Assembly: GCA_951406725.2 (NCBI GenBank) | Contig: OX597829.1 | Span: 24,490,001 to 24,554,000, forward strand | Source of the DNA: Octopus vulgaris | Taxonomy: Eukaryota | Direction of reading: 5' to 3' | Length of the DNA: 64,000 nt | Shown here: in pieces, positions 20,801 to 47,800 of the stretch | Numbering within the stretch: the stretch's first letter is position 1 | How the letters are laid out: each line of letters begins with the position of its first letter | Position numbers and translations under genes: made by a program | Notes under the pieces: model-generated | Databases searched by the model: none | Seen by the model: the letters and a program-made list of their open reading frames with translations, nothing else | Told to the model about the DNA's origin: nothing

Positions 20801-23800
20801 ATGAGTTCAATTCCTGGCAGCATGTTGTGCCCTTGAGACTTTATTTCACATTGCTTCAGTTGGCAAAAATGAGTAGTATCTGTATTTCAAAGGGGCCAGC
20901 CTTGTCACATTCTGTGTCATGCTGAATTTCCCTGAGAACTACATTAAAGGTATGTGTGTCTGTGGGGTACTCAGCCACTTGCATATTAATTTCACAAGTA
21001 GGTTGTTCCATTAATTGGATTAATTAGAATCCTCATCATGGCAACAAACAGAGAGCCAGTTTCATACTTCCTGAATAAATATAAAGCTTTCCTTTCATAA
21101 GTTCCAAGTTACTCTGGTGATTAAAAACAATTGGGAATGTTTATCATATATGATGCATGGATGCCAGGGAAAAAATATCCTGTGTACACAGGACAGGCAA
21201 AGGATTAAAATTAAGTAGAGTCTGTCTGTGACACCTGACCCAAAAGCAATGACACAGAAGATCAAAGATGTTGACACAGTAACCCCCAACACTAGTACAA
21301 CTGTTGAAAGATCAATACCAAGGAGAGAAAAGAAAAACCGGTTCTTCACAATTTTTGATATATGCTGCCTATCATATGGCTATAGATTCTCAAAGAGGAA
21401 TGAAATTAGAAAGAGTTAGATCCTTACCCAGGGGCAAACATAATGTAGTAGGGACCAGATGTGTTTATGGGAGAGTGTAGAATGCCAGGGTAAACATAGT
21501 CAAGTGAAATAGTAATCCTAACAACCAGACATGGTAGGACAAACTAGATACTGTACACACACACACATCATATCACATGCACTACATTAACACACCACAG
21601 ACATGAACACAAACCAAACTGAGAGGTGTCTAAGTGGCATTTATACCAGCTAGAAATAGCAATCAATTCTACCATACAGTCACAAGAAAGGAAGGACACA
21701 TAATGTAGTTCTAGATACGCTACGACTGGAAATAAAAAAATTGGAAAGTCACAGCTGAAATGCCACTGATCAAAGGTTTTCAAGATCAAGACTGACCTTG
21801 GGCTAAACTACAACAACACATGTGTGCACGCATCTTTTATAAAAAGAAAACAAAAGACATGTAGAATATTTTGTCCATCACTCACTTGATGATGCAGGGA
21901 GCAGCGGAGTTTCTCAATGTCAATTGGATGTTCCCACATAATGAATTCAAATATTTTATTCATCAGTGCATACTCTGGTTTTGAACCAGTAAGCCTCTGT
22001 TTCAACCATCGAAATTTATCATTACTTAAAACAGCATTGACAACATGACTCCAATTATCAGGCTGAAATAGAGAAATTAACTTGATAATGGACACTTTAA
22101 ATATCAAATATGAAAAAAAAAAATTATTAAAAAATTTTTTTTAATAAAAAAATAATAATCTGAAACACTAAATAATTATCTACAACACATACACACACAC
22201 AAATGTGTGTTTTTATATATATATATATATATATATATATATATATATATATATATATATATATATATATATATATATATATATATATATATATATATAT
22301 ATATATATATATATATATATATGTATATATATATATATGTATATATATATATATATATATATATATATATATATGTATATATATATGTATATATATATGT
22401 ATATATATATATATGTATATATATATATATGTATATATGTATATATTATATATAATATATATATATATATATATACACATATATATATATATATATATAT
22501 ATATATATATATATATATATATATATATATATATATATATATATATATATATATATATATATATATATATATATATATATATATATATATATATATATAT
22601 ATATATATATATATATATATATATATATATATATATATATATATATATATATATATATATATATATATATATATATATGTATATATGTATATATGTATAT
22701 ATATATATGTATATATGTATATATGTATATATGTATATATATATACATATATATATATATACATATATATATATGCCCAAATTCTGACTTGAAAGACTTC
22801 ACCAGGTGGTGCTATTAAGTTAGACATGGCCTGGGCCAATAATGGCCGAAACCTATCAAAGTATCAAAGTATCAAAGTATATATATATATATATATATAT
22901 ATACATATACACACACACACACACACACACACACACACACACACACACACACACATATATATATATATATACATACATATATATATATACATATATATAC
23001 ATATATATATATATATACATATATATACATATATATACATATATATACATATATATACATATATATATATATATACATATATATACATATATATATACAT
23101 ATATATACATATATATACATATATATATATATATATATATATATATATATATATATACATACATACATATACACACACACACACACACACACACACACAC
23201 ACACACACACACACACACACACACACACACACACACACACACACACACACACACACACACACACACACACACACACACACACACACACACACACACACAC
23301 ACACACACACACACACACACACACACACACACACACACACACACACACATATATATATATATATATATATATATATATATATATATATATATATATATAT
23401 ATATATATATATATATATATATATATATATATATATATATATATATATATATATATATATATATATATATATATATATATATATATATATATATATATAT
23501 ATATATATATATATATATATATATATATATATATATATATATATATATATATATATATATATATATATATATATATATATATATATATATATATATATAT
23601 ATATATATATATATATATATATATATATATATATATATATATATATATATATATATATATATATATATATATATATATATATATATATATATATATATAT
23701 ATATATATATATATATATATATATATATATATATATATATATATATATATATATATATATATATATATATATATATATATATATATATATATATATATAT

Positions 23801-44800: not shown

Positions 44801-47800
44801 GTAGCAGTACATCTTCAGGGAGAAACTGAAATATAGCATGTAGCTTTGAAAACAGAAAATAGTTACAGTTGAATAAATGAGAATAAGATATGATGCTATT
44901 TGAGGAATGTCAATTTCAAGGTTGGATCAAAGTACACAGATATTAGGATAGAAATTGAAGAATTAACATATAGGATCAGCCCTCATCCATCAGATCTATG
45001 ATTGCAGATGTCATTTCACTCATGACCATTCCATCTCATCGAAATCTTTCAACATCAATGGAAATTGTAACTGAGATACTAGTGCCGGTGGCACGTAAGA
45101 GAACCATCCGAACGTGGCCGTTGCCAGCGCCGCCCCAACTGGCCTCCGTGCCGGTGGCACGTAAAAAGCACCATCCAATCGTGGCCGTTTGCCAGCCTCG
45201 TCTGGCACCTGTGCAGGTGGCACATAAAAAGCACCCACTACACTCTTGGAGTGGTTGGTGTTAGGAAGGGCATCCAGCTGTAGAAACACTGCCAGATCAG
45301 ACTGGCCTGATGCAGCCTTCTGGCTTCCCAGACCCCAGTTGAACCGTCCAACCTATGCTAGCATGGAAAACGGACGTTAAATGATGATGATGATTTTATC
45401 AAGGACCACATTATCAATGACACTTTAGTGATGGTAAGATGTGATCTGGTTGTTATTTCTAACAAATGAAGCAACTGTCAGATTTATTGATGTCGAAATT
45501 AAAGATAACGACATTATTGATGGTGATAATGATGGTGGTGGTGGTGGTGGTGATGATAATGAGAGCAATTGCTAAAGTAGAGTAGAATTTACAATTTTTT
45601 TTTTCCTTGAGACAGAAAGGAACAGAAACAAAAAATGTAAAAAAAGGTTTTAAATTACTTACATCAACATAATTTCCCACTAGAAAAGGCTGCAACTTAT
45701 CAGTGACATCTGCTTGAATACCCGATAAGAATACAGATGCAGGATCACGCACTGAAAAGAAAGAAAAAACATTGACAATGAAATAATAATGATGACAATG
45801 TTGATGATCATTGATTAGAGACATATTAAAAACATGGGATGAGGTGGTGAAGCATGACCTTCAAACATTGGGTCTCACAGAGGCAATGACAGGAGACCGA
45901 GACTTTTGGAGATATGCTGTGATTGAGAAGACCTGGCAACTAAAGTGAGATCACAGCCATGGCTGATGCCAGTGTTGCATGTCCGGCCCATTTAAGAGTA
46001 CCCCCAATGCATTGGGTGATATGATATGCTTGAGAATACCTTGTTAAGTAAAATCAAAATTGTAGCTGTGGCCAGTGCCCCCTGACTGGCTCCCATTCTC
46101 AGAGTGGTAGGTATTAGGAAGGGCATCAAGCTGTAGAAACATTATCAGATCAGATTGGAGCCTGGTGCAGCTGTTGGCTCTCCAGACCTCAATCAAACCG
46201 TCCAATCCATGTCAGCATGGAAAACGGACATTTGATGATGATGATAATAACAACAACAACATATTTTGTAGAGGCACTATGAGAGATATGAAATAAATCA
46301 TTTGAACTCAAAGTAATAAACCTACAAACAATAGAATGCAGAATATTGGGTAAAAATATTCCTAGATAGGAAAAAGTTGAAGGCTACTCAAAATACTAAT
46401 ATGAAGGGCACTAGCTGATTAGGTTGACTAAAAGGAATATAAAAAGACAAGGATAGGGCTGCTTGATACCTAAGGCTACTAGTTGTAGCCCAATATCGAA
46501 GCAGAAAAGCGATTATAAGAACCATCCTGAAAAACAATAACAATTAATAATAATAAAAATCCTTTCTAATATAAGCACAAGGGCTGAAATTTGTGGGAGG
46601 GAGGTAGTCAATTACATCAACCCTAGTACTCAGCTGGTACTTATGTTACCGAGTCCAGAAGGATGAAAGGCAAAATCAAACTCGGAGGAATTTGAACTCA
46701 AAATATAAAGATGGACAAAATACCACCAAGCATTTTGCCCAGCATGCTAACAATTCTGGCAGCTCGTCACCTATATAATTAATAATAATAATAATAATAA
46801 TAACAACAATAATCCTTTCTTCTACAGGTACAAGGCCTGAAATTTGGCGGAGGGGGACTAGTCGATTACATCAACCCCAGTGTTTAATTAGTACTTAATT
46901 TATTGACCCTGAAAGGATGAAAGGTAAAGTTGACCTCAGCGGAATTCAAACTCAGAACATCAAGGCTGATGAAATGCTGTTAAGCATTTTGACCAGCATG
47001 CTAACAATGCCACTGCTGCTGCTGCCGCCGCTGCCGCCGCCAGCAGCAGCAACAGCAACAACAACAACAACAACACTTTCACTAACATATCTATATATTT
47101 TTTTGCTCATTTTCAAGTGTTCTTCCATGCTTACATGAAATGGACAAATATATTATCACGGCATTGTTTTATAGCTAGATGCCCTTCCTGTCATTAACCC
47201 TTCACTTGTTTTGAATGTAGGGCACAAAGCCAATGGGCAATCTACTAATACAGGAAAGGACAGCAATGTTGTCCATCTGTAGCTGAGCAACTTTTGGAGA
47301 GATGGAAAACAAGCATGCAGACATGTGTGTGCTCAAATACAAACTTATACAAATAAACAATGGTCATCTTTCTGTTTCTGTCTATTAGACCCACTCATGG
47401 CTTTTGCTGGCCAGAAGATGCAGCTAAAGACATTGAACCCCAAAAACAATATGACTGATGCCTGAGCCTATCCCCCCACCCCAACTCTCTCATATAGACA
47501 ATATTTATTAAAGCTGAAAAAAATTTTCACAAACTGTTTCAGCTTTAATAACTAGTGTATTACTCTACCTTCGCTATTTCAGTATTACTTTTTCCACCTT
47601 CACTTGCATCTAGAAGTTTACTGTGTGTGTGTGTGTGTGTGAGTAGGTTTTGTGGAGCAAATGAGGAGTAAATTTCAATATATGTATGTATATATACATA
47701 CATATATTTAACGGCGGTGCATCAGCATGGCCGCAGCTCTGAGCTGAAACTAGAAAAAAATAAAAATATATATATATATATATTTTTATATATACATACA

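Follow-up and report, generated by a model that had tools for sequence, protein, structure and literature searches.

A predicted double-hairpin 3' tail shared by a CR1-like LINE lineage and a SINE of Octopus vulgaris

The use of the hairpin tail of a long interspersed element (LINE) by a short interspersed element (SINE) is a principle that has been established for decades and that has also been shown in molluscs. A shared 3' structure with covarying stems is the published signature of such 'stringent' SINE-LINE pairs (PMC4824008, PMC4176376). In bivalves, the tRNA-derived SINEs BivaV-SINE2 as well as BivaCORE-SINE1 have 35-61 nucleotides (nt) of their 3' end in common with the LINE CR1-14_CGi, the evidence being conserved stem loops with compensatory changes (PMC4824008); this LINE was later reassigned to CR1-Zenon (PMC11481361). 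Zebrafish L2 elements require their 3' stem-loop, the stems of which are exchangeable when pairing is kept, and in these elements the region that lies between the endonuclease and the reverse transcriptase (RT) binds the RNA (PMC4176376). Here, we describe a comparable tail in a stretch of 64,000 nt of Octopus vulgaris DNA (assembly GCA_951406725.2, contig OX597829.1, positions 24,490,001 to 24,554,000; the whole stretch is referred to as the window), where it ends both a LINE and a SINE family, SINE A. The best reading appears to be an ordinary 'stringent' SINE-LINE partnership at the level of the LINE lineage. The shared tail is probably a double-hairpin signal, as predicted from its fold, that lets the RT of a presumably CR1-like lineage copy both LINE and SINE A RNA, with a sibling family of the LINE seen in the window as the likelier partner.

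Thirteen ends in the window carry the shared tail of about 45 nt, four of them of LINE type and nine belonging to SINE A. The LINE-type ends are those of a 2.98-kb LINE copy at 23.9 kb, of a second, 195-bp copy of the same LINE, of a short 'island' at 22.8 kb and of a 'relic' at 47.7 kb (Table 1). As seen with BLAST, the similarity between SINE and LINE is restricted to the last 46-52 nt, with 79-83% identity, and the sequences upstream are unrelated. The tail folds into a first stem-loop (SL1) with a 3-bp base, a purine mismatch and a 4-bp upper stem, followed after one base by a second stem-loop (SL2) of 5 bp; AAAC and a tandem repeat come next. In 10 of the 13 ends the minimum-energy fold contains both hairpins, either complete or short of one end pair, and the folding z-scores of the four ends named in an initial annotation of this DNA lie, tails included, between -2.4 and -3.6. 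That annotation had located the ends of the LINE (26810-26873), the island (22805-22877), the relic (47713-47766) and a SINE (32596-32646), all of which are found in place, but it missed a fifth, the minus-strand 195-bp LINE copy (28035-27841, 95% identical), and saw SL2 alone where there are in fact two tandem hairpins. The stems that it drew for the relic and the SINE, with loops of 1 and 2 nt, are sterically impossible, and these ends fold with 5 bp and loops of 3 and 4 nt, respectively. Its sequence signature, GGYGGTGC...CATRGCC, stands in part: GGYGGTGC is enriched in the window (7 observed against 1.06 expected, a count reached in 0 of 100 shuffles), but the motif that is shared is GGYRGTGC, because the SINE at 32596 reads GGCAGTGC, and the two blocks are the two arms of SL1. 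A covariance model of the 13 ends returns, by construction, 41-78 bits for these ends and 14.9 bits for the next site of the window, so that no further clear end is present there. Rfam gave no match.

The proposal that the stems differ in sequence yet keep pairing holds well. In the 13-row alignment 94.9% of the cells pair, against 19-42% in controls with a slid structure, and both sides have changed at 4 of the 12 pairs, three of these in SL2; the covariation score was reached by none of 500 column shuffles. As the alignment rows are related, the honest count of independent compensatory changes within the window is reduced to about two to three. The outer pair of SL1 is Watson-Crick in six of six LINE-type ends (the four of the window and those of two distant relatives, L001 and L081), among which all four pair types occur. 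Two features of stringent pairs, namely homology confined to the 3' end and a conserved stem-loop with compensatory changes, are therefore observed. As had been suggested, SINE A is linked to the LINE lineage by a covarying 3' structure that both possess, and the same architecture ends L001 and L081. Several observations nevertheless weigh against the partnership proposed here, and they concern the structure itself, its persistence in distant relatives and the match between SINE and LINE. With regard to the structure, three of the nine SINE A copies fold otherwise, the outer SL1 pair is formed in just two of the nine, and the covariation counts rest on about five families, the nine SINE copies not being independent. 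Moreover, the tail sequence is not better conserved than the rest between the two LINE copies: they differ at 7 of 170 sites, four of which lie in the tail. No stem pair is broken by these differences, and the SL2 pairing of the 195-bp copy is kept via a G-U wobble.

The 2.98-kb LINE copy encodes an endonuclease and then an RT in a single frame of 963 residues (Pfam RVT_1, 2e-30; Exo_endo_phos_2, 8e-12; both above cut-off). We tentatively take the element to be CR1-like from a protein motif of CR1 type plus elimination, the RT tree described below being made up of unnamed sequences. The closest relative, P0001 (88% identical), has 68 extra N-terminal residues, from which it follows that the window copy begins inside the endonuclease and, to judge from this start, is likely dead. 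The element has the marks of an APE-type non-LTR retrotransposon, in that an AP-like endonuclease precedes the RT in one frame and its copies are dispersed, 5'-truncated (the two in the window at different points) and provided with a tandem-repeat tail. A homolog of its protein in Argonauta hians, 58% identical, is the sole organism-named one among the 120 matches listed and indicates an octopod host. Words of the LINE are present at 73-97% in 20 of the 24 listed sequencing runs, under ten organism labels, which suggests that the family is young and common to related species. It also seems to be large, since the last 600 bases occur in thousands of contigs in three runs (5,934-15,574 in each, a depth that is not a copy number); 1,179-3,960 of these contigs are 99% or more alike, and the identity within the family ranges from under 90% to over 99%. 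No variant row was seen in 26797-26874 among 40 of the 148 rows, a weak result that is not counted as evidence.

Relatives of the LINE were drawn from eukaryotic contigs in metagenomes and from contaminated prokaryotic assemblies. Of the metagenomes, 1 of 64 parts was scanned, and the scans of both collections kept the best 80 relatives, so that further clade ends surely exist. In an RT tree of 173 sequences, the window LINE falls into a clade of 31 with a support of 1.0, together with L001, L003, L081 and L082. Of these four loci, L082 stops before its frame is complete and L003 passes abruptly into unrelated sequence, which leaves L001 and L081 (from other hosts; 35% and 40% protein identity, respectively) as the two that retain their 3' ends. 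Both ends show an SL1 with a GGT/GCC base, a second hairpin 1-2 bases further on and an A-rich tandem tail; their upper stems are different in sequence with pairing kept, and the SL2 of L001 is weak, its formation varying between folds. The positions G-G...T-x-G-C-C are invariant in a nine-sequence alignment. A strict descriptor of the tail matches 1 of 100 3' regions and a single place in 1.29 Mb, which is the L001 end, and a loose one matches 3 of 100 (L001, L081 and L155, which lies outside the clade) and six places in 1.29 Mb, while shuffled regions match in 0-1 of 1000.

The comparison with the clade has its own weak points, as just two outside ends stand behind it, the descriptors were written after the L001 and L081 tails had been seen, and the covariance model made from the window only, when applied to 160 LINE loci, missed both tails (best E 1.3). 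L001 and L081 might resemble the octopod tail by chance or convergence, terminal hairpins being common in these LINEs, in which case just the sharing within octopods would be real. A crude fold with no shuffled control is in line with this, as it places a hairpin near the tail in 56 of 61 LINE ends and two adjacent ones in 15 of 61, with L001 failing, and so is the match of the loose descriptor to L155 ahead of a tandem tail. Coincidence of this kind seems improbable, however, given that the sole strict match in 1.29 Mb is the 3' end of a clade member, that two of two clade ends fit, against 1 of the 98 other 3' regions, and that the positions named above are invariant. A double hairpin as such is not unique to the clade; the specific one appears to be clade-specific. 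Eight of the 15 two-hairpin LINE ends (L092, L093, L098, L102, L104, L113, L114 and L142) belong to one related family outside the clade, with two strong tandem hairpins of unrelated sequence and apparent covariation between members.

With regard to the other material, animal-type LINE contigs were seen inside many prokaryotic assemblies (L081-L160; 381 relatives), most likely as host contamination. Four contaminated genomes contained no further clade end, and matches to a loose sequence pattern in them were set aside as noise, being comparable to those of a reversed control. Viral contigs gave no match to the tail pattern, and the viral relatives amount to three weak RT matches. The first open reading frames (ORF1) of L001 and L082 are homologous (E 1e-12) and have a Cys/His-rich block in common. 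Neither has a Pfam match; the Atlas lead is zf-CCCH, a family on 10% of the members. The described ORF1 types of CR1/L2 elements that were compared are PHD, RRM, CCHC, esterase and Tnp22, and 'CCCH' does not occur in the consulted text of a survey of such types (PMC4120745). The LINE copy in the window is devoid of an ORF1.

The identity of the partner depends on how closely the SINE and LINE tails match. SL1 is nearly identical in both, its loop being identical or one base apart. In contrast to what is expected of a stringent pair, the SL2 loop and the terminal repeat differ between SINE A and the 23.9 kb LINE family, the loop being CATA in the LINE and AAAT or TAAT in SINE A; in zebrafish L2 it is the loops that carry specificity (PMC4176376). 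Furthermore, four of the four LINE-type ends lie within TA arrays, for which 5.1% of the window positions qualify, and three of them share one 7-kb block, as opposed to none of the nine SINE A copies, judged by eye. No TA arrays are found downstream of the L001 and L081 ends. Given how SL2 loop, tail repeat and TA-array residence differ, the exact partner is probably not the 23.9 kb family; this lowers the partnership of that family, not the partnership at the lineage level. Sibling families likely exist, since A-rich tails follow position 26853 in contigs of three runs and one contig of a fourth run has the same A-rich tail on different upstream sequence, and one such family is a better candidate. 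The A-rich repeat of SINE A is nearer to the repeats of L001, L081 and the island than to that of the LINE. The initial annotation had taken the hairpin variants of the window for sibling LINE families, which is plausible for the island, with a longer SL1 and a different SL2 relative to the LINE tail and a tandem tail that resembles those of L001 and L081. The relic matches the LINE tail at 85% identity across 47 nt. It is not callable as a separate family, given that no more than 45 nt of it are left and that in three runs the LINE's own tail is followed by A-rich tails; it may be a short copy of any sibling family.

Should the 23.9 kb family itself be the partner, recognition would go through SL1, with SL2 acting as merely any 5-bp stem. 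The SL1 loop CCCA of three SINE A copies is that of the LINE, the LINE family is very abundant and its range of identity overlaps the divergence of SINE A (copies 67-87% identical to the query copy by BLAST), and among the four full-length SINE A copies with the least divergence three have TA(TA) at both junctions, as seen by eye. Two pairs of SL2 differ along with its loop and the tail repeat, however, the TA-array residence is not shared, and the SINE A repeat has a closer resemblance to the A-rich tails that L001 and L081 carry, all of which makes this family a possible but somewhat unlikely partner. It could also be thought that the tail was captured long ago and that SINE A is now moved by another enzyme (e.g., RTE or Tx1) or through relaxed recognition. 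Recent RTE, Dong-R4 and L1-Tx1 copies are reported in O. vulgaris (PMC13282606, Table 1), and the identity of the SINE A tail (0.85) is no higher than that of head plus core (0.84). Conversely, both sides of two pairs have changed between the SL2 of SINE A and that of the LINE, implying that pairing was selected for once the two had split, and the fold is kept in older and younger SINE A copies alike, so that an old capture of this sort seems very improbable.

If the tail is a signal for the RT of the lineage, as preferred here, the second open reading frame (ORF2) protein would, by analogy, bind SL1 and SL2, probably by way of the basic stretch that separates endonuclease from RT, where P285 is invariant and I284 nearly invariant among 26 relatives. 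At a TA-rich nick, target-primed reverse transcription would begin within the short tandem tail, and a frequent early stop would leave 3'-only fragments of 45, 100 and 195 nt. A template switch directly behind the Deu-like segment may have given SINE A its tail. A more ambitious version, which we put forward as tentative and rather unlikely as a whole, is that a widespread CR1-group lineage with a triple CCCH-type ORF1 reads a two-part RNA code, with SL1 as a near-invariant lineage badge and SL2 as a variable family label; that one octopod branch of it is (TA)n-seeking; and that the lineage drove one of the two main octopus SINEs, thereby being the long-missing partner of a CORE-type SINE.

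The SINE A copy at 32237 is composed, in order, of a tRNA-like head, a CORE-like CCTTGGG block, an internal microsatellite, a Deu-like segment, SL1, SL2 and the tail, and looks like a CORE/Deu/LINE mosaic. The label Deu-like is presumptive, both for this segment and for the second SINE family described below. In the head, A- and B-box-like motifs are seen by eye only, with no gene called by ARAGORN and no Rfam match. The CORE-like CCTTGGG block is present in most copies, and this motif has been named as CORE-conserved (PMC5786205). All full copies contain in their middle a TA/TG microsatellite (e.g., 32400-32460), the length of which varies widely, and at 35272-35858 (-) two copies form a direct tandem, one head starting straight after the tail of the other. 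SINE A had been called the dominant SINE, a description that is not supported, as a second abundant family has 23 BLAST hits against 19, at different cut-offs. This second family has at least three different tails, none of them with the double hairpin. A segment of about 55 nt is common to both families up to the divergence of the tails (score 31 against a maximum of 30 in 500 shuffles, which is borderline), ending where the tails diverge as expected from a tail swap. At 17398-17453 (-) and equivalent places, the pre-tail segment of SINE A resembles the end of the second family's body, and a small inverted repeat lies directly 5' of SL1.

The window is intron-rich animal DNA. On its minus strand lies a gene whose exons are of MIB_HERC2-like type, with a match under the cut-off, and of RCC1 type, with a clear match, and the retroposons appear to lie in introns of this HERC2-like gene. 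A 7-kb block of TA and CA repeats (22200-29100) contains three separate insertions of the LINE lineage, namely the island, the 2.98-kb LINE and its 195-bp copy. The latter two stand tail to tail with about 970 bp of TA between them; an assembly artefact was ruled out as the source of these facing copies, since they are 95% and not 100% identical.

Table 1. Coordinates of the retroposons, their tail elements and other features. Positions are those of the window unless a locus is named.
Feature	Position	Strand	Remarks
LINE copy, 5'-truncated	23892..26873	+	963-residue open frame, stop 26781-26783, short 3' untranslated region, (AATC)n tail, TA arrays both sides
Basic stretch between endonuclease and RT	24733..24800 (about residues 281-303)	+	possible tail-binding region, going by its position
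SL1 of LINE tail	26809..26830	+	outer pair, GGC/GCC base, purine-purine mismatch, 4-bp upper stem, 4-nt loop
SL2 of LINE tail	26831..26848	+	5 bp, CATA loop, then AAAC
Second copy of same LINE, 195 bp, 5'-truncated	27841..28035	-	95% identical; faces first copy over TA array
Island, 3' end	22775..22878	+	SL1 22805-22831, SL2 22834-22847, (TATCAAAG)3 tail, TA arrays both sides
Relic, tail only	47713..47766	+	SL1 and SL2 (3-nt loop), A-rich end; flanks rich in TA
SINE A, full length	32237..32646	+	SL1 32596-32615, SL2 32617-32630, short tail
SINE A copy	17336..17748	-	both hairpins
SINE A copy	61361..61730	+	
SINE A copy	1182..1552	-	
SINE A copy	52104..52537	+	
Two more diverged SINE A copies	35858-35640 and 35637-35272	-	tandem
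More diverged SINE A copy	33958..34180	+	3' half
More diverged SINE A copy	5155..5491	-	
Second SINE family	46813-47000 (-), 46560-46746 (-), 56502-56678, 58828-58952, 11849-11988, 51172-51344, 62678-62837 and others		BLAST
HERC2-like host-gene exons	16207-16566, 62284-62640	-	weak MIB_HERC2, clear RCC1
Clade ORF1s	L001:958-2556, L082:2-1555		Cys-rich N-terminal part and three CCCH-like zinc fingers, by eye

SINEs account for 11.6% of the O. vulgaris genome (PMC13282606), those of octopus being dominated by tRNA-Core and tRNA-Deu (PMC8967140), and the octopus CORE-SINEs OR1 and OR2 are on record (cited in PMC4824008 and in PMC4758252). SINE A is quite possibly one of these two or a relative that has already been catalogued. 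For O. vulgaris, 13 CR1 families with 787 recent insertions and 62 Mb of CR1 in all have been described, together with a joint expansion of SINEs and LINEs and recently active CR1 (PMC13282606). The word 'partner' is absent from the text and supplement of that study, and no 3'-end analysis was seen in the parts consulted. Another work treats an RTE element, its consulted text being without mention of CR1 (PMC9115989); 'Octopus' does not occur in the consulted part of a 2013 review of SINE-LINE pairs (PMC3747384), nor 'octop' in PMC5786205. In the literature searched, no paper naming the enzyme that copies the O. vulgaris SINEs was found and no octopus SINE-LINE pair either, although Repbase and Dfam, which were not compared, may already list one. 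The tail points to a specific LINE lineage and offers a testable signal of 45 nt for SINE copying, and the natural stem variants lend themselves to swap experiments that ask how sibling LINE families tell their own templates from those of others. For the specialist, this is useful and not surprising.

In comparison with known systems, the octopus tail is like the bivalve CR1 system in that a mollusc SINE carries a CR1-group hairpin tail, several SINE superfamilies using one tail in bivalves. The bivalve tails are A/T-rich and differ in sequence from the octopus tail, motifs of the GGYRGTGC/CATRGCC type are not found in the bivalve tails of the supplements searched, and the consulted parts of neither bivalve paper cover an octopus partner (PMC4824008, PMC11481361). 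As in ZfL2-1, ZfL2-2 and UnaL2/UnaSINE, a 3' stem-loop stands ahead of a short tandem repeat (PMC4176376, PMC3747384). The stringent L2 elements are described as having one stem-loop, in which the loop provides the specificity and the function is proven, whereas the octopus tail has two predicted hairpins, with the base of SL1 as its most constant part (PMC4176376). What this analysis adds is the second hairpin, its persistence in distant members of the clade, the mismatch that points to a sibling family and the unusual ORF1 of the clade.

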